Shown: piece after piece, positions 4,626-13,819 of the stretch
How positions within the stretch are numbered: the stretch's first letter is position 1
How the letters are laid out: each line of letters starts with the position of its first letter
Assembly: GCA_964493715.1 (NCBI GenBank)
Contig: CAZBPC010000066.1
Location: 1-19,245, forward strand
Length of the DNA stretch: 19,245 bases
Source: an uncultured archaeon
GTDB lineage: Archaea > Asgardarchaeota > Lokiarchaeia > Sigyniarchaeales > SOKP01
Direction of reading: 5' to 3'
Translations under genes and position numbers: made by a program
The notes under the pieces: model-generated
The model's input: the letters and a program-made list of their open reading frames with translations, nothing else
Databases searched by the model: none
What the model was told of the DNA's origin: nothing

Positions 4626-4706
4626 ATAAATTCAAATGATGATTATGAGCGTTATGGAATCCCTGGTACTGGAACAGAAGAAGTATCAATCGCTATCATG
4701 GTTTAA
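4626..4706 (+). pseudogene. Possible remnant of an archaeal extracellular beta-helix (NosD/CASH-like) protein
   Basis: Reads INSNDDYERYGIPGTGTEEV..., resembling the 'I-x-x-N-D-D-F-x-x-Y-G-F-P-G-x-G-T-x-x-D-P-Y' cap motif; flanked by stops, no start codon. Confidence 0.3.
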
Positions 4707-4962
4707 TGTCCATTTTAGGGCATTAATTAAACCAGTTATACCTCCACCGATTACTATTAAACTATAATTATTCAAATCAGTCATGATTTAAACATTTAAT
4801 GTCCCAATATTTATAGGTTTAATTTTTCTTCATGTTTTTTCCTATAATCAGTAAGCTTAGAAAATAGTTAACTTTTTTAGTTGACGGTGCATAGAATAGT
4901 TATTAGAAAATGTCTTAGCAATATTAGCTAACTCTAGAATTAAAACTCAATAGGGAATCGAT

Positions 4963-5109
4963 ATGGTGTTTATAAAAATGAAAGGTATTTATCTATTGAG
5001 TTTAGTCTTTGTTGATGGATCAAATGACACTTTTGTTATTAGATCGGATGATGTACAGAATTTTCCTTTATTTTTTTCGCATCTACATCATCATCAACAT
5101 CATAAATAA
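4963..5109 (+). CDS. Candidate histidine-operon leader peptide (HisL-like), start uncertain (ATG 4963, ATG 4978 or TTG 4996)
   Basis: MVFIKMKGIYLLSLVFVDGSNDTFVIRSDDVQNFPLFFSHLHHHQHHK*; CAT CTA CAT CAT CAT CAA CAT CAT at 5080-5103, TAA at 5107-5109, 86 nt upstream of hisIE. Confidence 0.7.
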   Translation: MVFIKMKGIYLLSLVFVDGSNDTFVIRSDDVQNFPLFFSHLHHHQHHK

Positions 5110-5195
5110 TTCCGATGAATTAAGGTAGTAAATTTACTCGATTATTCATTGGAATTGAATCGAACTGAAATCTAATTCAGTTTTGGGGGTATATT
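5010..5195 (+). promoter_or_regulatory. Putative attenuator / structured 5' leader of the his operon
   Basis: 13-bp stem 5108-5120/5144-5156 (one G-U); stem 5162-5169/5176-5183; competing stems 5047-5055/5084-5092, 5043-5048/5111-5116 and 5151-5160/5175-5184; SD-like GGGGGT at 5185-5190. Confidence 0.6.
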
Positions 5196-6107
5196 ATGTT
5201 AATATTAAAAGTGGAAATAAAGGATATAGAATTGCTGGGAGGAATTACCCAGTTTATTAAAGAAGTATTTTTAAAAAGGAATTGGGATGTTTTTTTAACT
5301 TTAGTCCTAAAAGTCAATAAGCAAGATTTCGATAGACTGAACATGAATGATAATAATTTGAAGGAAATTTCTCAGAATCTAGATTTAATATTTGAAATAG
5401 TTGATGGTCAGAATGAGATGAAAAAACTGCTATATAAAAGAGGTTATAAAACCATTATTCAATCATCACCTAACCGCTATGAAATCATCTATTTTAATTC
5501 AAAAATGAATTATTCATTAATAGACGATAGTTTGCTAAATATTCTCGATTTTGATAAAGAGCATGGGTTAATTCCAACAATAGTACAAGATCAGAGCAAT
5601 ACCGTGTTAATGCTTGCATACTCTTCTAAAGAATCATTAAAAGAAACAATAAAAACTCGGAAGGCAACCTATTTCAGTAGATCAAGAAACAAACTATGGA
5701 TAAAGGGAGAGGAATCTGGAAATTTTCAAGAAGTAAAAAGAATTCTTTTTGACTGTGATAAGGATGCTCTCTTGTTTAAAGTTGAACAAACGGGATACGC
5801 TTGCCATACAGGAACATATTCTTGTTTTGCTGATAGAGAATTTTCATTAAATGTTCTCTATGATATAATCAACAATAGAATAGAGAATTCTACAGTATCA
5901 GATTCTTATACTAAGAAGCTAGCTGAAGACAATAAATTACTACTTTCAAAAATCAAGGAAGAAAGTTTAGAAGTGATAAATTTTACTGATAGAGACAATC
6001 TTATCTGGGAGATTTCTGACATAACATATTTTATCCTAGTTTTAATGGCAACAAAAAAAATTATACCTCGTGAAATTTTAAATGAATTAAGGAGGCGGAA
6101 TAAATGA
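5196..6107 (+). CDS. hisIE: Bifunctional phosphoribosyl-AMP cyclohydrolase / phosphoribosyl-ATP pyrophosphatase with an ~115-aa N-terminal extension
   Basis: HisI motifs [42 protein letters not shown]; HisE motifs [20 protein letters not shown]. Confidence 0.92.
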
Positions 6108-7111
6108 AAAAAACAGAGTTTTATTATAAATCACGGCAAGTGAGATTAGCTATACCTTCAAAAGGAAGAATGGAAAAAGAGACTCAAGATTTCTTGAAGG
6201 AATGTGGTTTTAACATACAAAGGAATAACAGACAATATATTGGCTCTATAAATGGACCCATTGATCTCCAATTAGTGTATCAACGACAAGTAGATATTGT
6301 CAGAGGCGTGCTTAACGGTTCTTTAGAGCTTGGAATAGTTGGTTATGATTTAGTCCTTGAATATTTACCTGACGAGAATAAGGAATTAGTAGTTATACAT
6401 GAAGCGTTAAATTTTGGAAAATGTAGTATTGAAATTGCAGTTCCTGAAGATTGGGACGAGAAATCAATTGAAGAAATTAAACAAAACAAGGAAAATTTAA
6501 AAGTAGCAACAAAATTTCCAAAACTTACTGAACAATACCTTAACTTGAAAGGGATTTCTTGTGAATTAGTTAAAGGAAATGGTTCTCTTGAAGTTTATCC
6601 TGAGTTAGATTATAGCGATATAATAGTTGATTTAGTTTCTACAGGTCAAACATTAAAGGATAATCGTCTAAAGACAATAGATGGCGGTCAAATATTAAAA
6701 TCCGAGGCTGTACTCATTGGGAACCGATCAGCATTAAAAAATGATCCCACCTTAAAGATCGCTAGAGGATTAATAGAGTATTTTGAAGCAACTCTCAGAG
6801 CACAGAATTTTGTTTCTGTATTTGTGAACATGAGAGGGGAAAGTCAAGAAGAAATAGCTAATGCGATCTTCTTGAAAGATGGACTTGAGGGTCTTCAAGG
6901 ACCTACAATTTCTCCTGTTTTCACAAAATCTGGAGAAAAGATGCATGCTGTTCACGTTATTGTTGAGAAAGAAAGATTACAAATAGCTATTAGAAATTTA
7001 CGTGAGATTGGTGGAAGTGGAGTGGTTGTCGCACCAACACTCTATATTTTTGAGGAAGAACCAATCAGATATATAAAATTATTAAAAAATTTGGGGAAGA
7101 ATTATGATTAA
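6104..7111 (+). CDS. hisG: ATP phosphoribosyltransferase, long form with C-terminal regulatory domain
   Basis: [57 protein letters not shown]; ATGA overlap with hisIE and AAGGAGG SD. Confidence 0.95.
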
Positions 7112-8387
7112 GATTTATTCAATAGAAGAAGCAAGAACCAGTATACTTAAAAGAGGAATTAAACAAGAATTGCCAGAAGAAAATGTAAGAAGAATAGTAA
7201 ACGATGTGAAGGAACGAGGAGATATAGCTCTTAGAGAGTGGACTGAAAAATTTGACAAAGTAAAAATTGATCAATTTGAGGTTCTGAATTTAAACTATAC
7301 AGAATATCTAAACAACATCACTCAAGAGTTAAGACAATCTCTCGAACTCGCTTGCGATAGAATCTATAAATATCACAAATCTCAGCCAAATTCTCCTTGG
7401 GAAAATAATGATCTTGGAGGACAGCTAGGTCAAATAATAAGACCTATTGGAACAGTTGGTATTTATATTCCGGGAGGCACAAGTCCTTTATTCTCATCTA
7501 TATTAATGACTGCAATTCCTGCTATAGTGGCGGGGACTAAAAACCTAATTTTTGCCACTCCTCCTAATCAAGATGGAACTTTATCAAAAATTATTCTTGC
7601 AACCTTCGGAATAATAGATTCCTTGGGTGTAAATTTTCGTGTGTTTAAAATGGGGGGTGCTCAAGCAATTGCTGCCATGGCATTTGGTACTGATCAAATC
7701 CCAAAAGTAGATAAAATTGTAGGACCTGGGAATATTTATGTGAATTTAGCTAAAAAAGAAGTTTATGGATATGTTGGAATTGATGGTATATATGGTCCAA
7801 CTGAGGCGTTAATTATTGCCGATGATACTGCAAATCCATCATTAATTGCGTCAGATCTTTTAGCACAAGCTGAACATGACGTTTTAGCGATACCAATTTT
7901 AGTAACACATGCAAAAAGTATAATTTTTGCTGTCAAAAAGGAGTTAAAAACTCAAATTGAAAACCTTGAGAGAAAATCTATCATAAGAGAATCAATAAAT
8001 AATAAAGGTGGTATTATTCTAACAAATTCAATTGAAGAATCATTTAATATTTCAAATGAGTTTGGTCCTGAACATCTATCCTTAATGCTCAAAGAACCTT
8101 TAGAATATATTGATTTAATTGAAAATGCTGGAGGGGTATTCATTGGTGAAAATTCTTTTGAAGTATTAGGAGATTATATTGCAGGTCCTAGTCATGTGAT
8201 GCCTACAAATGGAACAGCTCGATTTTCTTCAGCCTTATCAGTGTATGATTTTGTTAAAAGGATTAGTTTTGTAAACTTGAATAGAAAAACTGTTCTAGAC
8301 TTATCCAAATTTGCTGAGATTATGGCAAGTAATGAGGATTTGACAGGACATGCAAACTCTGCAACTATAAGAAGGAGAGTGATTTAA
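7104..8387 (+). CDS. hisD: Histidinol dehydrogenase
   Basis: VGIYIPGG, GGAQAIAAMAFGT, KIVGPGNIYV, GPTE, DLLAQAEHD, PEHL, GDYIAGPSHVMPTNG; overlaps the hisG stop. Confidence 0.96.
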   Translation: MIKIYSIEEARTSILKRGIKQELPEENVRRIVNDVKERGDIALREWTEKFDKVKIDQFEVLNLNYTEYLNNITQELRQSLELACDRIYKYHKSQPNSPWENNDLGGQLGQIIRPIGTVGIYIPGGTSPLFSSILMTAIPAIVAGTKNLIFATPPNQDGTLSKIILATFGIIDSLGVNFRVFKMGGAQAIAAMAFGTDQIPKVDKIVGPGNIYVNLAKKEVYGYVGIDGIYGPTEALIIADDTANPSLIASDLLAQAEHDVLAIPILVTHAKSIIFAVKKELKTQIENLERKSIIRESINNKGGIILTNSIEESFNISNEFGPEHLSLMLKEPLEYIDLIENAGGVFIGENSFEVLGDYIAGPSHVMPTNGTARFSSALSVYDFVKRISFVNLNRKTVLDLSKFAEIMASNEDLTGHANSATIRRRVI

Positions 8388-8388
8388 A

Positions 8389-9519
8389 ATGAAGAGAAAA
8401 AATTTTATTATCAAACCATCAAAAGCAATTCAAAAATATTTGGGCTCAATGGATGCTTCATTATATCTAGAAGAACAGAACCAAGGAGGAAGTAAATTCA
8501 TATACCTAGATAAAAATGAAAATCCTTTTTCACCTCCTTTAGAAGATTTATCCTCTTTAATCTCTTTAGATGTCCTAAAAAACTATCCAGATCCTAATTC
8601 TAATGAAATATTAAACAGATTGTCGCTGATTCTTGAGGTTCCGACATCATTTTTAATTGCTGGATCGGGTTCTGATGAGTTGCTAGATCTTGTAATTCGA
8701 ACATTTGCAACATCTAAAACAATGATATTGAGTATATGTCCTACATTTTCAATGTATAAATTTTATGCAAGCATAAATAATGCGAAATACGTAAGTGTAC
8801 CTTTAAAACTCTCGGTAAATGAAGCATCTGGACTGGCAAAATTTAACTTAGATCCAGAAATTTTTATTAAGAAAGCTAAAATGTCAGACATAATCATTCT
8901 GGCAAGACCAAATAATCCTGACGGAATGGTTATCGATATTGAATTCATTGAGAAGCTTCTGGAACTGGAAAAGTTAATCATTATTGATGAAGCTTACATT
9001 GACTTCAGTTATAAACCCAGTTTAATAGGTTTGGTAAAAAATTATCAAAATTTAATTATATCACGATCATTTAGCAAATCCTTTTCGCTCGCTGGGTTAA
9101 GATTAGGATACATTATTGCAAATCCTTCAATAATAAAGATACTAATGAAGGTGAAAAGCCCATTTAATGTTAACAATATGGCTTTACAAATAGGTTTGGT
9201 ATTATTGAATAACTACGATAAGGTTAGTGCCAATGTTAATAAAATTAAACAAATTCGAGAAGAATTTTACAGTGATCTCACCAAATTAAGAGAGAAATGT
9301 AAAGGATTTTATTACCATCCAAGTGAAGCAAACTTTACTTTATTGAGATTTCAATCAAAAGAGAGATCACAATCAGTGTATCAATTTTTCCTAAAAAACC
9401 AAATAAAAGTGAGGAAATTCGATTCAGAACTCTCAAACTGTCTAAGAATTTCAATAGGTAAAAGGTTACAAATGAAAAATGTAATAAAAATTTTAAATTT
9501 ATACTTTGAGGTGAATTAA
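8389..9519 (+). CDS. hisC: Histidinol-phosphate aminotransferase
   Basis: LDKNENP, NYPD, GSGSDE, PTFSMY, PNNPDG, IIDEAY, PLP lysine in SRSFSKSFSLAGLRLG; located inside the his operon. Confidence 0.9.
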   Translation: MKRKNFIIKPSKAIQKYLGSMDASLYLEEQNQGGSKFIYLDKNENPFSPPLEDLSSLISLDVLKNYPDPNSNEILNRLSLILEVPTSFLIAGSGSDELLDLVIRTFATSKTMILSICPTFSMYKFYASINNAKYVSVPLKLSVNEASGLAKFNLDPEIFIKKAKMSDIIILARPNNPDGMVIDIEFIEKLLELEKLIIIDEAYIDFSYKPSLIGLVKNYQNLIISRSFSKSFSLAGLRLGYIIANPSIIKILMKVKSPFNVNNMALQIGLVLLNNYDKVSANVNKIKQIREEFYSDLTKLREKCKGFYYHPSEANFTLLRFQSKERSQSVYQFFLKNQIKVRKFDSELSNCLRISIGKRLQMKNVIKILNLYFEVN

Positions 9520-9520
9520 A

Positions 9521-10126
9521 TTGGAAAGAAAAACACATTTAGAAAGGAAGACTAAGGAAACCAATATTAAAGTGGATTTAAATCTCGATGGTGTAGGAGA
9601 ATCTAAAATTAGTACTTCGATAGCTTTATTTGATCATCTTCTCACTCAGATTGCTGTCCATGGATGTTTTAATCTAAATATTAATGCAGAAGGTGATCTC
9701 CCAATAGATAATCATCATATAATTGAAGATACTGCAATTGTTTTGGGAAAAGCTTTTAAAAAAACCTTAGATTATAAAAAAGGGATTACTCGGGTAGCAC
9801 ATTCTTTTTTTCCGATGGATGAGTGCCTTGCTTTTGTTGCAGTGGATATTTCTTCAAGACCATTTTTTCGAAAAGAAATCAACTGGAAAAATCAATTTTT
9901 AGGCTCTAAAGAGGAAAATTTAATTCCAGTAGACTTAATAGAGCATTTTCTATATTCATTTTCGATAAATGCTAAAATAACGCTTCATGTAAGGTCGCTA
10001 TATGGTGATAACAATCACCACATAACAGAAGCGATATTTAAAGCTCTTGGGAAGGCTCTAGATTATGCCTCGAGATTCGATCCAAAACGTGAACAAACTC
10101 TTCCTTCAAGTAAAGGATATCTATAG
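9521..10126 (+). CDS. hisB: Imidazoleglycerol-phosphate dehydratase (monofunctional)
   Basis: RKTKETNI, FDHLL, DNHHIIED, PMDE, NNHHITEAIFKA, PSSKG; TTG start preceded by GAGGTGA (9508-9514); no N-terminal phosphatase domain. Confidence 0.95.
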   Translation: MERKTHLERKTKETNIKVDLNLDGVGESKISTSIALFDHLLTQIAVHGCFNLNINAEGDLPIDNHHIIEDTAIVLGKAFKKTLDYKKGITRVAHSFFPMDECLAFVAVDISSRPFFRKEINWKNQFLGSKEENLIPVDLIEHFLYSFSINAKITLHVRSLYGDNNHHITEAIFKALGKALDYASRFDPKREQTLPSSKGYL

Positions 10127-10136
10127 AGGGATTCAT

Positions 10137-10733
10137 ATGATTATTATAATAGATTATGGAAGTGGGAATCTTAGGTCGATTCAAAAAAGCTTTGAGAGAT
10201 TTTACTCTGATGTGAGGATTTCGAATGACATAAATTTAATAGAGCAAGCACATGGATTAATTCTTCCAGGTGTAGGATCTTTTGGAGATGCGATAAAGGA
10301 ACTCGCACGATACAATCTAATCGATGCTTTAAGAAAAATTTTCAAACATGTTCCAACTATGGGAATCTGTTTGGGTATGCAGTTATTTTTCTCAAGATCA
10401 GAAGAATCTTTTGGTATACGTGGATTAGATGTAATTCCTGGGGTCGTAATTAAACTTAATAGTAATGAAACGATAAAAATTCCTCATACTGGTTGGAATA
10501 GATTAATTCCAACTTCAGAGCCCTATTTTTTAGGTTATGCATACTTCAATCACTCTTACTATTGCTTACCAAACGAGAAAAAAGTATGTATCACATACTT
10601 TAACCATGGAAAATCTATTCCTGCAATTATAGTTAAAGATCAAATAATTGGTGTACAATTCCATCCAGAAAAAAGCAAAAATGTTGGTGATAATATAATT
10701 AAATATTTTATTTCAATGCTTAGAGGGAGTTAG
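10137..10733 (+). CDS. hisH: Imidazole glycerol phosphate synthase glutaminase subunit (start revised to ATG 10137)
   Basis: IIDYGSGNLRS, LPGVGSF, GICLGMQ (nucleophile Cys), PHTGWN, QFHPEKS; GAGGG upstream of 10137. Confidence 0.95.
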   Translation: MIIIIDYGSGNLRSIQKSFERFYSDVRISNDINLIEQAHGLILPGVGSFGDAIKELARYNLIDALRKIFKHVPTMGICLGMQLFFSRSEESFGIRGLDVIPGVVIKLNSNETIKIPHTGWNRLIPTSEPYFLGYAYFNHSYYCLPNEKKVCITYFNHGKSIPAIIVKDQIIGVQFHPEKSKNVGDNIIKYFISMLRGS

Positions 10734-10736
10734 AAA

Positions 10737-12239
10737 GTGAAAAAGATAATTCCTGCTATTGATCTGTATAATGGAAATGCTGTTCGGTTATACCAAGGTG
10801 ATTTTAACAAAATTAAAATATATCATAGAAACCCGGTTGAGCTTCTAAAGAGTTTTCTTTCTCTAGGAGTTGATCTAGTTCATGTTGTAAATTTAAATGG
10901 AGTTAGACCTAGAAATTTCAAAGGAAATGACAATTTTAAAGTCATTAAATCTCTTATTGATGAAGCTAATAATTGGGGATCAAAAATAGAATTAGGAGGG
11001 GGAATTAGAACCATAGATACTATTGACAAACTTCTTGATTGGGGGCTTTATAAATTTATTATTGGAACCCTTGCTGTGGAGAATCCAACTCTTTTAAATA
11101 AATTTATTCTAAATTACAGAGACCAAATGATTGTGGCTTTAGATTTTCTTAAAGGGCACTTAAAGATTAAAGGGTGGACTGAAGAAAGCAATAGAAGTTT
11201 AGATTCCTACTTTTTAAAGCTAGAGGATCAAGGAGTTTCGCATTTCATAATAACCGACATCTCTCGAGATGGTACCTTGAGTGGTGTCAATATTGCTTCA
11301 TACAAGAAGATATCAAGTATTAAGCAAGATAATACAAAAATCATAGCATCAGGAGGGATTATAAATGAAAGTGATGTTCATAAGGTTTTGCAATACACAG
11401 ATGGAGTAATAATTGGGAAAGCATTATACAGCAACAATATAAGTTCTAAAAGTCTGCAAAATCTCATAGTTAATTATAATCCAACTAATTTAACAAAACG
11501 AGTGATCCCCTGTCTCGATGTTAAAGATGGGCGAGTCGTAAAAGGAGTACAATTCAATAATCTGCAAGATAGTGGAGATCCTGTAGAATTGGCTAAATTT
11601 TACAATGATGAAGGAGCAGACGAATTAGTTTTTCTAGATATTTCAGCTACACTAGAAGGACGAAAAAGTATGCTCAGTACAATCCATTCTGTTGCTGAAG
11701 AAGTATATATTCCATTAACAGTTGGTGGTGGAATAAAAACTATTGAGGATATGACTGCAATTATCAAAGCTGGAGCCGAAAAAGTGAGCATAAATTCCGC
11801 GGCTATAAAAAACCCAGATTTAATTACGAAAGGAGCAAAAAAATTTGGGTCTCAATGCATTGTTGTTGCTATCGATGCAAAAAAAAAAGGTGAATCATGG
11901 GAAGTTTATTCACATAGCGGTTCAAAACCTACTGGCATCGACGTTTTAGAATGGGTAAAAATTGTAGTGGAAAAAGGGGCGGGAGAACTTTTAGTTACAA
12001 GCATTGATAGAGATGGGACTAACATAGGATATGATATTGAGTTAATCCGAGCAATTACGAATATTGTGTCTGTACCTGTGATCGCTTCAGGGGGAGCTGG
12101 AACTAAAGAGCATTTTATAGATGCAATTAATAATGGAGCAGAAGCTGTGTTAGCGGCTTCATTATTTCATTACAATCGCATGAAAATTCAGGATTTAAAA
12201 GATTTTTTAGGTAATCATAATATTATGATAAGAAAATAA
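10737..12239 (+). CDS. hisA-hisF: HisA-HisF fusion: ProFAR isomerase (residues ~1-245) joined to IGP synthase cyclase subunit (from residue ~252, nt ~11490)
   Basis: HisA: [43 protein letters not shown]. HisF: [54 protein letters not shown]. No stop or ATG at the junction. Confidence 0.92.
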
Positions 12240-12262: not shown

Positions 12263-13819
12263 TCAATTTTTTTTATATCTTGCGTTCCCATCCATAATTT
12301 TTCTGTCAAGAATCATATCATTTGCTTGCATTCCGGCAAGCAACGTGGCAAAAACGCTATGGATGAATTTTGGTTGATAAAGTCCCTTTACGGGAGTTTT
12401 CATCTTGAGTCTTGTTCTACCAAAATTATCGGGATAAGGTGCCATATCATAAATCGCACCTGAAGGAGATCCGGAATATCGTGCATAAGTCGCTGGAGTC
12501 GAAATATCAACAACCTTTATATGTTTCCTTAGTTCAGGAATTAGATATTTTTCAGTTTTGTCTATAAAGAAATCTGCCCATTTTTGTTTCTTTTCATTAT
12601 ATTTTTGAGGATCTTTTTCTCGTAATTCTACCCAATCATCAATACCCATAGGAACAATCCTCAAGACAATATTAGGCTTTCCACCAGTTGTTAGCGAAGG
12701 ACATATGACACCAAGTCGAAATTCTTCATCTGTATATCCTATTTTTCCATTTTCCATATCATCAAATAGTCTATCGTAAATATCTCCTCCAGAAGAAATG
12801 ACACAATAGCCACAATCTAAACCTAACCCACCCAAATCGATTTCATCGTCAAGTCCGATGCTTACATTCATTGATGATGTTGACATTCTCACACTTTCGA
12901 TTTTATCAGCATACTTTTTATCCAAATCACGTATGATATCTAAACCCACCATTTTTTTCATTGCTACTAATGGATCTACAGTAGTAACAACATAATCCGA
13001 ATATATTTTTCTTCCGTCCTCAAGTTCAATCCCCCTCACTTCTCCGTTTTCTACTAATATCTTGCTTACTTTTGTGTTGAGCAGTAGCTCTCCTCCTAAA
13101 CTAAGATATTTTTCTTCAAATTTCTTGGGGAACTCGATGAATCCTCCCTTAGGTCGAAATGCACCATCAAGTAGTGAGTTCATTGCTGAAATTGGTACCG
13201 GTGCTGAGACCCTATTAGCAGGTAATCCACTAAATTCAGCAAAAACTGTAAATATCTCAATAACATCTGGTTCTGTGATATTAAACTGTTCAAAGTATTC
13301 TTTAAATGTTTTTCTGGAGTTTTTTACGATCTTTGGGCATGTTACTAACATTTTTAAGATTTCAATAATCGTTGGTTCTAGTTTAAGTTTAAATAACTCC
13401 AAATATAAGGCTCTTGAATAATCTAATAAATTTTCGATTTCAGTAGCATTATTAGGATATTTTTCCATTAATTCTTTTTTAAATTCTTGAAATCCAGAAG
13501 GTAAATCAATAGTCCTCACATTATTTGTTTTAATATCAACTAAGAAAATCCTCGTATAGTACCCTTTATACTCCTTAAGCTCAATATCAATGTCAAAAAA
13601 ATGTAATAAATCCGTAATATTGGGAATCATTTGACATGTATCGAAGGTATATCCTTGTCGTTCATAGGATGTGACATACCCACCAGTCTTTGGTTCTTTT
13701 TCTATTATTAATACTGGTTCCTTTTTAACATCATGGTATTTGGCCCAAGTTAGACCACTACTTAAGCCGGTTATGCCACCTCCGACTACTATTAAACTAT
13801 ATTTATTTGTATCTGTCAT
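12263..13819 (-). CDS. FAD-dependent oxidoreductase, phytoene desaturase (CrtI)/COG1233-like; substrate unknown
   Basis: VVGGGITG Rossmann motif, EKEPKTGG, GYTFD, PKGG, VSKILVENG.V.GIEL.DG, STPATYARY.GS..GAIY. Confidence 0.8.
   Translation of the reverse strand: MTDTNKYSLIVVGGGITGLSSGLTWAKYHDVKKEPVLIIEKEPKTGGYVTSYERQGYTFDTCQMIPNITDLLHFFDIDIELKEYKGYYTRIFLVDIKTNNVRTIDLPSGFQEFKKELMEKYPNNATEIENLLDYSRALYLELFKLKLEPTIIEILKMLVTCPKIVKNSRKTFKEYFEQFNITEPDVIEIFTVFAEFSGLPANRVSAPVPISAMNSLLDGAFRPKGGFIEFPKKFEEKYLSLGGELLLNTKVSKILVENGEVRGIELEDGRKIYSDYVVTTVDPLVAMKKMVGLDIIRDLDKKYADKIESVRMSTSSMNVSIGLDDEIDLGGLGLDCGYCVISSGGDIYDRLFDDMENGKIGYTDEEFRLGVICPSLTTGGKPNIVLRIVPMGIDDWVELREKDPQKYNEKKQKWADFFIDKTEKYLIPELRKHIKVVDISTPATYARYSGSPSGAIYDMAPYPDNFGRTRLKMKTPVKGLYQPKFIHSVFATLLAGMQANDMILDRKIMDGNARYKKN

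Follow-up and report, generated by a model that had tools for sequence, protein, structure and literature searches.

A candidate histidine-sensing leader peptide before the his operon of an Asgard archaeon, and its putative tryptophan and leucine counterparts

Leader peptides and the Asgard his locus

Leader-peptide attenuation is a textbook bacterial mechanism and requires ribosomes that translate an RNA still under transcription. The best-known case beside a histidine operon is enterobacterial hisL. An intrinsic terminator is not needed in tnaC (tna operon) or in the Salmonella mgtA and mgtCBR leaders, in which the position of the ribosome decides whether the nascent RNA is exposed to a termination factor. 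Aminoacyl-tRNA synthetases (aaRS) are subject to leader-peptide control as well, as in pheST of E. coli, again a bacterial case. Cysteine-responsive short ORFs have been described in mycobacteria (10.1101/834739). A search of openly accessible full texts returned no report of leader-peptide attenuation in archaea, Asgard lineages included, which agrees with a remark in the preliminary description of the locus that the mechanism is poorly documented there. In the available text of PMC2965389 and PMC12288461, archaea are mentioned only in passing.

The stretch of DNA analysed here (19,245 nt, "the window") is an entire contig (C66) of a 3.68-Mb genome in 160 contigs with 31% G+C. The preliminary description had placed an unannotated His-rich leader directly upstream of a his operon in a probable Asgard archaeon. 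The coordinates bore out the position and composition of this ORF exactly, Pfam and NCBIfam confirmed hisIE, and the Pfam families of the genes that follow showed a complete operon. The main features are:

4870..4880 (+), TATA-like AACTTTTTTAG, some 90 nt upstream of the leader start codon; candidate archaeal promoter
4963..5109 (+), leader ORF of 48 codons, ATG at 4963 and TAA at 5107-5109, peptide MVFIKMKGIYLLSLVFVDGSNDTFVIRSDDVQNFPLFFSHLHHHQHHK
5185..5198 (+), hisIE ribosome-binding site (RBS), with the Shine-Dalgarno sequence (SD) GGGGG at 5185-5189, a 6-nt spacer and the ATG at 5196; conserved in two leader alignments
5196..12239 (+), his operon hisIE-hisG-hisD-hisC-hisB-hisH-hisA/hisF (the last two fused), from Pfam per ORF, the HisIE equivalog and the gene order in the ORF list

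The host is an Asgard (Promethearchaeota) archaeon, as had been supposed. All six hisIE loci closest to that of the window in a species-representative genome collection are titled "MAG: Promethearchaeota archaeon", and an archaeal-type SSU rRNA is present in the same genome as the leader. Related MAGs carry the same his locus on long contigs (273 kb and 1.05 Mb).

The first gene of the operon, hisIE, is a 303-aa ORF with PRA-CH and PRA-PH domains in Pfam, and it matched the HisIE equivalog NF002747 in NCBIfam (201 bits against a cut-off of 187). The six ORFs after it were assigned by Pfam to HisG, HisD, a class I/II aminotransferase (in the hisC position), IGPD (HisB), a class-I glutamine amidotransferase (in the hisH position) and HisA-HisF. 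The hisA-hisF fusion is one 500-aa ORF with two His_biosynth domains (10737-12239, +). HisIE has an N-terminal extension of 115 aa (5196-5540, +) without a Pfam family, for which a protein-atlas look-up gave no usable match. Extension and leader co-occurred at all 33 loci of the sample described below, and this could reflect either a functional link or joint inheritance. On the opposite strand, a 32-codon fragment at 4689-4784 (-) shared 20/30 residues (67%, E 1e-12) with the N-terminal end of an FAD-type oxidoreductase of 518 aa, encoded at 12263-13819 (-). The fragment, located in the spacer that separates the divergent gene from the his leader, has the appearance of a gene remnant.

The 48-aa leader peptide has the C-terminal end HLHHHQHHK (...FFSHLHHHQHHK). 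Six His codons, every one CAT, fall within eight consecutive codons (5080-5082, 5086-5094 and 5098-5103), and the stop codon is followed after 86 nt by the hisIE ATG. Since CAT is also the commoner His codon of the genome (77% of His codons), no rare-codon effect was seen at the leader. The leader has its own SD (GGGA, 4953-4956), and both this sequence and the hisIE SD are complementary to the 16S 3′ end (...GGAUCACCUCCC). Further upstream, ACTTTTTTAG (or CTTTTTTAG) was aligned in seven of the nine regions compared; the sequence of L025 was cut at TTTTTAG and G007 was without the motif. The occurrence ending CTTTTTTAG in the window is the putative TATA element listed above.

The arrangement resembles hisL in that clustered His codons occupy a short ORF immediately upstream of the first his gene, a series of hairpins surrounds this ORF, and ribosome speed on the His codons is presumed to be the signal. 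It has no sequence or structure homology to hisL, however, and is not a member of the hisL RNA family. Unlike hisL, the Asgard leader has four to six interrupted His codons rather than an unbroken run, its ORF is much longer (36-54 codons among relatives), and its His codons close the ORF and take part in a 3′ arm. No antiterminator/terminator pair was found, and the terminators of the archaeal host are T-runs free of hairpins.

Conservation and RNA structure of the His leader

The hisIE N-terminal extension was used as a query against 133 genomes of the same family (two genera). N-extended hisIE was found in 15 of them. In each, an ORF with three or more His among its final 14 residues stops 78-90 nt upstream of the hisIE start codon. 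When metagenomes were scanned with an alignment of 13 HisIE sequences, 80 loci were obtained, and 19 of these were examined. The leader was present in all 18 contigs whose hisIE match begins at residue 1. The nineteenth locus (L214) was matched only from residue 13, has a different N-terminus and is without a leader. The leader was therefore kept at 33 of 33 related loci (15 genomes and 18 metagenome contigs), down to 50% hisIE identity, and every one had an open frame, a stop 78-90 nt from hisIE and the HH-x-x-HH core (in the forms HHHQHH, HHHLHH, HHWLHH, HHCQHH and HHLHHC). The hisIE loci of other architecture (L006-L020) mostly lacked a window of four His in eight residues, the exceptions being L016 and L019.

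Statistics were computed on 28 distinct sequences, from the 15 genomes and 13 of the 18 metagenome loci; L191, L192, L197, L203 and L209, whose leader peptides duplicate included ones, were excluded from the alignment. As these sequences are kin, representing two genera of one family and about six peptide types, the counts overstate independence. The His frame was open over 36-54 codons in all 28, while the other two frames each held 2-13 stops in the same interval. Differences in leader length were due to in-frame indels only (9-36 nt), among them a 12-codon deletion in one clade. The start codon occupied the same alignment column in 25 sequences (22 ATG and 3 TTG), and an SD-like GTGA, GGTGA, GGTG or GGGA was found 3-14 nt before the start in 25 of the 28. 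All sequences had 4-7 His among the last 14 residues, and in 26 the last His codon was 0-2 codons from the stop. A single CAC was found among the His codons of eight sequences. Both the upstream His run and the CAT/CAC variation sought by the preliminary description are thus present in relatives. The open frame, aligned start, SD and in-frame indels are signs that the leader is translated, and the conservation at 33 of 33 loci is decisive for a conserved element as opposed to a chance one. All of this evidence is comparative, from related MAGs, and it supports the interpretation first given to the locus.

Five covarying helices, with 47 pairs, were recognised around the leader in the 28-sequence alignment:

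4945-4952 : 4994-5001 (+), helix P1, 8 pairs, 90.0% paired, 3 compensatory; loops out the leader SD and start codon
~5019-5028 : 5035-5044 (+), helix P2a, inside the leader ORF, from RNAalifold; 9 pairs, 85.7% paired, 5 compensatory
5047-5055 (GATGATGTA) : 5084-5092 (TACATCATC) (+), helix A:H1, 9 pairs, 89.6% paired; the first His codons are its 3′ arm
5108-5120 (AATTCCGATGAAT) : 5144-5156 (ATTCATTGGAATT) (+), hairpin B:C, 13 pairs, 95.8% paired, 6 compensatory
5162-5169 : 5176-5183 (+), hairpin D, 8 pairs, 91.9% paired; runs into a T-run (5181-5184) and the SD

Overall, 91.1% of alignment cells were paired, as against 26-44.5% when the 3′ partners were slid by 1-3 columns. Compensatory changes were seen at 17 pairs, a number reached in none of 500 column shuffles. 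The closing pair of A:H1 was G-C in 13 sequences and A-U in 8, and this helix was also present in single-sequence MFE folds. One pair of hairpin D was G-C in 21 sequences and A-U in three.

Hairpin B:C is tied to the end of the leader ORF. Its first pairs involve the last two bases of the leader stop codon in the window; in all 28 aligned sequences its pairing begins between -3 and +4 nt relative to the first stop-codon base, and in 24 at least two of the three stop-codon bases are paired. The hairpin appeared in the MFE fold of all 15 genomes, with a mean dG of -16.5 kcal/mol compared with -5.9 for shuffles. Outside the family the exact B:C pattern was matched in G116 and G186, both times inside long ORFs, and these matches were rejected as chance.

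Two smaller features were noted in this region. Arm B holds a three-codon mini-ORF, ATG AAT TAA (5115-5123, +), which many relatives share and others lack, and which probably just follows from the helix sequence. A T-run lies in the loop that joins the A and H1 arms, immediately ahead of the His codons (5068-5077, +); it is T7 in the window and, judged by eye, T4-T8 in most relatives. A pause or termination site inside the leader at this position is conceivable, because runs of T5 or more are the terminator signal of this genome.

Window DNA was detected in some 22 metagenome runs from salt marsh or sediment. Read-length contigs in two metatranscriptome runs, each of a separate study, extended over 4969-5119, 5239-5388 and 5028-5175 (151-nt for the leader ones). 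They give a weak hint that the leader region is transcribed, as read-length contigs show no ends, strand or level and DNA carry-over is possible.

Tryptophan and leucine leaders in the same family

The genome was scanned for short ORFs that contain a run of a single amino acid and end within 200 nt upstream of a long ORF. This returned 34 candidates, three of which precede cognate genes, namely His before hisIE, Trp before a TrpB-like gene and Leu before the LeuRS gene. The two additional leaders are:

G000 contig C11:10501-10554 (+; locus L128/L130), Trp leader, 17 codons, ending ...FWRWQWQWRS, with 4 Trp in 7 codons
G000 contig C19:38744-38830 (+; locus L129/L160), Leu leader, 28 codons, ending ...DDLLVLLLLL

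The Trp leader lies 156 nt before a TrpB-like PLP enzyme (NF009057, 583 bits), whose gene was found in 110 of the 133 family genomes. Among the best 30 loci, the upstream ORF had at least three W in eight residues (WQWPW and similar) in 20 and two W in six, and four loci, all from one genus, had none. A helix encloses the whole Trp ORF, a small hairpin covers the last Trp codons and the stop codon, and a conserved block of about 40 nt comes next. A simple window test did not detect a hairpin starting at the stop codon of the Trp leader (z = +0.5).

The Leu leader lies 129 nt before an archaeal-type leuS (TIGR00395/NF008957, scored on the N-terminal 513 aa), which was matched in 72 of the 133 family genomes. 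All 30 loci fetched had a Leu-rich ORF (...DLLAVLLL...) ending 128-162 nt upstream of leuS, and in all 30 a conserved hairpin opens 2-7 nt downstream of the stop codon's first base. The pyrimidine loop of this hairpin is complementary to a purine block downstream (GAAAGAG). By eye, loop and block change together (CUCUUUC/GAAAGAG, CUUUUUC/GAAAAAG and AUUUCUUU/AAAGAAAU), and they may form a pseudoknot or an alternative pairing.

As in pheST and the mycobacterial cysteine ORFs, cognate codons are placed here ahead of a gene for an aaRS or a biosynthetic enzyme, and the leuS leader is the analogue. The pheST and mycobacterial elements differ in being bacterial and in acting through a terminator or through ribosome occlusion. 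Within the Asgard family, three unrelated sequences pair the codons of an amino acid with its cognate gene, which is hard to explain other than by ribosome sensing.

In five sister-family genomes, four of them closed, there was no Leu-rich ORF before five leuS-like loci and no Trp-rich ORF within 200 nt of four TrpB-like loci. Upstream of 13 other aaRS-family matches in the genome of the window, no convincing cognate leader was found. One ORF tail on contig C54 of G000 (...FSSCYSNIFSSSR) has six Ser in its last 12 residues and lies about 95 nt upstream of a candidate aaRS-like ORF. The latter has a weak, sub-threshold match to the class-IIb aaRS family PF00587 (7625-7963, -), and the pairing could be due to chance.

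Sensing, output and rival explanations

We consider it likely that the leader ORF encodes a regulatory peptide which senses charged tRNA-His through the speed of the ribosome on the HH-x-x-HH codons and so sets his expression. Ribosome-mediated attenuators are recognised by a short ORF with its own start signals, directly upstream of and co-oriented with the operon, and this was found. They are also recognised by cognate-codon enrichment, which is conserved in frame in all 28 sequences, and by an RNA structure that depends on ribosome position. For the last, the leader stop codon lies in the covarying hairpin B:C, and its dependence on the ribosome is predicted from footprint geometry. At the sensing step the comparison supports membership of the bacterial leader-peptide class, the output mechanism being a separate matter.

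In the mechanism we propose, the leader ORF would be translated, and a shortage of His-tRNA would probably make ribosomes pause on its His codons. A ribosome grips and unwinds its mRNA to about 11-15 nt beyond the P-site. One waiting at 5086-5103 would on this basis touch no more than the initial few pairs of B:C, and one whose A-site contains the stop codon would have opened essentially the entire 5′ arm of B:C. By this geometry the hairpin would report whether the ribosome is held back or reaches the end. There is perhaps an even chance that B:C acts as a gate in this way: a ribosome on the His codons stops short and the hairpin folds once transcribed, while a ribosome arriving at the stop codon must melt the whole 5′ arm. 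The folded hairpin would correspond to his expression being ON and the melted one to OFF, a direction taken from physiology.

The preliminary description's proposal of His-tRNA-sensing attenuation is supported, with a sensing step like that of hisL. It further implied a switch of folds as in enterobacteria, for which no conserved antiterminator/terminator pair was found. Neither a scan for pairable stacks nor constrained RNAalifold revealed a conserved, mutually exclusive fold. The scan returned three conserved pairable stacks, H1:B, C':D3' and P1-arm:D3'. The pairings H1:B (His codons with arm B) and C':D3' (the 3′ end of C with the 3′ arm of D) were pairable in 86.7% of cells but showed no covariation beyond shuffles, 108 of 500 of which matched the observed value. 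Constrained RNAalifold gave only B:C or nothing. That the last His codons can pair with the hisIE AUG (CAU:AUG) is a trivial conservation and carries no information.

Footprint-masked partition-function folds of 15 leaders showed, among the rows listed, no consistent change in the accessibility of the SD or the AUG; masking abolished B:C, by construction. Hairpin D persisted under masking (P(D) 0.74-0.99 among the rows listed), except in G227, where P(D) was 0.56 with the footprint on the last His codon. Sequestration of the SD was not supported: the hisIE SD is unpaired to any conserved segment, and the accessibility change among these rows was inconsistent. The leader is like ermC and cat translational attenuation in that a ribosome stalled near the end of the leader ORF would change a hairpin beginning at the stop, but it differs in that the ermC and cat hairpins sequester the downstream SD.

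At 1,772 gene ends of this genome, runs of T5 or more were enriched within 20 nt of the stop, and there was no hairpin signal (-0.93 versus -0.79 kcal/mol). A classical terminator was consequently rejected as the default reading of hairpin D with its T-run, since only T3-4 follow D and the terminators of the genome are T5+ runs without hairpins. If the leaders are real, their output would have to depart from the bacterial scheme, because archaeal RNA polymerase does without hairpin terminators, and it may reveal a new mode of conditional termination or initiation.

Three outputs of the sensing step were considered, and the confidence placed in them adds up to that placed in sensing itself. Premature loss of the transcript is ranked first, although we hold it at somewhat below even chances: the melted, unstructured 86-nt spacer would be open to factor-dependent termination or cleavage, or to oligo-U termination, and his would be OFF. 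The archaeal factor for termination or cleavage would be of the FttA/aCPSF1 type. Such an output would resemble tnaC and the mgtA and mgtCBR leaders, which fit an Asgard leader where only a hairpin folded or melted is visible; the factor in the Asgard case would be FttA/aCPSF1 and not Rho. This ranking follows from the layout of the Leu class, in which the conserved module ends well before a variable stretch of 40-100 nt and a non-aligned RBS, suggesting that the transcript, and not the RBS, is where the decision falls. Second, and rather doubtful, is a change of initiation at the hisIE SD beside hairpin D, again with his OFF. Protection of the mRNA by the stalled ribosome is ranked last and seems improbable.

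Other explanations of the leader can be weighed against sensing by the ribosome. The element could be a structured regulatory RNA (a riboswitch, a direct tRNA sensor or a protein-binding leader), with the open frame and the CAU repeats as by-products of helices; CAUCAU, for example, might be kept only through pairing with GAUGAUG. Most of the conserved nucleotides within the ORF do fall in helices (the 3′ arm of P1, P2a and A:H1), the peptide is poorly conserved outside them, and the first His pair is itself a helix 3′ arm. The second His pair (5098-5103) is nevertheless conserved while lying in no supported helix, and the frame stayed open in 28 of 28 sequences through indels of 9-36 nt, with both other frames closed and the SD and start conserved. 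An Rfam cmscan of 4780-5260 at E up to 10 returned seven weak, unrelated matches, with neither His_leader nor the T-box riboswitch model among them. The Trp and Leu elements, moreover, repeat cognate codons at the ORF end in unrelated sequences. We regard a purely structured RNA, in any of these forms, as a slim possibility.

Still less probable is a functional small protein with a His-rich tail, for instance for metal binding, with only its transcript in common with the his genes. Its size (36-54 aa) exceeds that of most bacterial leader peptides and its N-terminal half is hydrophobic; but the leader ORF matched no Pfam family, its sequence varies except in helix-fixed segments, one clade has lost 12 codons, it is always placed 78-90 nt before hisIE, and the Trp and Leu counterparts before cognate genes would be left unexplained. 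The view that a low-complexity (CAT)n stretch arose by chance in AT-rich intergenic DNA would be favoured by the low G+C content of the genome and by CAT being its commoner His codon. Only 31 six-frame windows with at least five His in eight residues were found, however, among the 7,355,820 codon positions of the whole genome, from which the expectation for the correct strand of the 250 nt upstream of hisIE is about 0.001 such windows. The His-rich windows on C117, C8 and C81 that end at a stop were rejected as leaders, two being out of frame or antisense in coding sequence and one a protein C-terminus. Conservation at 33 of 33 loci, with covarying flanking helices, refutes chance, for which we retain almost no probability, and the preliminary description's view that a His run would hardly arise there by accident is upheld.

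Sensing of charged tRNA-His by the translating ribosome thus remains the preferred reading. A wider proposal, which we advance only as a speculation that is on balance unlikely, is that one Asgard family runs a small regulon of ribosome-sensed leaders (His for the his operon, Trp for the TrpB-like gene and Leu for leuS), which arose independently of the bacterial ones and act through a hairpin that includes or adjoins the leader stop codon. A terminating ribosome would melt the hairpin and expose the RNA to factor-dependent termination, and a starved ribosome would let it fold and permit read-through. If true, this would be the first attenuation mechanism in Archaea, and would provide direct genetic evidence of transcription-translation coupling in the closest prokaryotic relatives of eukaryotes.

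The leader signature is conserved, covaries and is repeated for three amino acids in one Asgard family, in the lineage nearest to eukaryotes. What is seen in this archaeon looks like an amino-acid leader-peptide switch of a kind so far known only from bacteria. If the leaders are real, they would add three new cis-regulatory RNA families for annotation and, being compact and mutable, would lend themselves to tests of how transcription and translation are coupled in Asgard archaea, and archaea would have evolved ribosome-stalling amino-acid sensing on their own.
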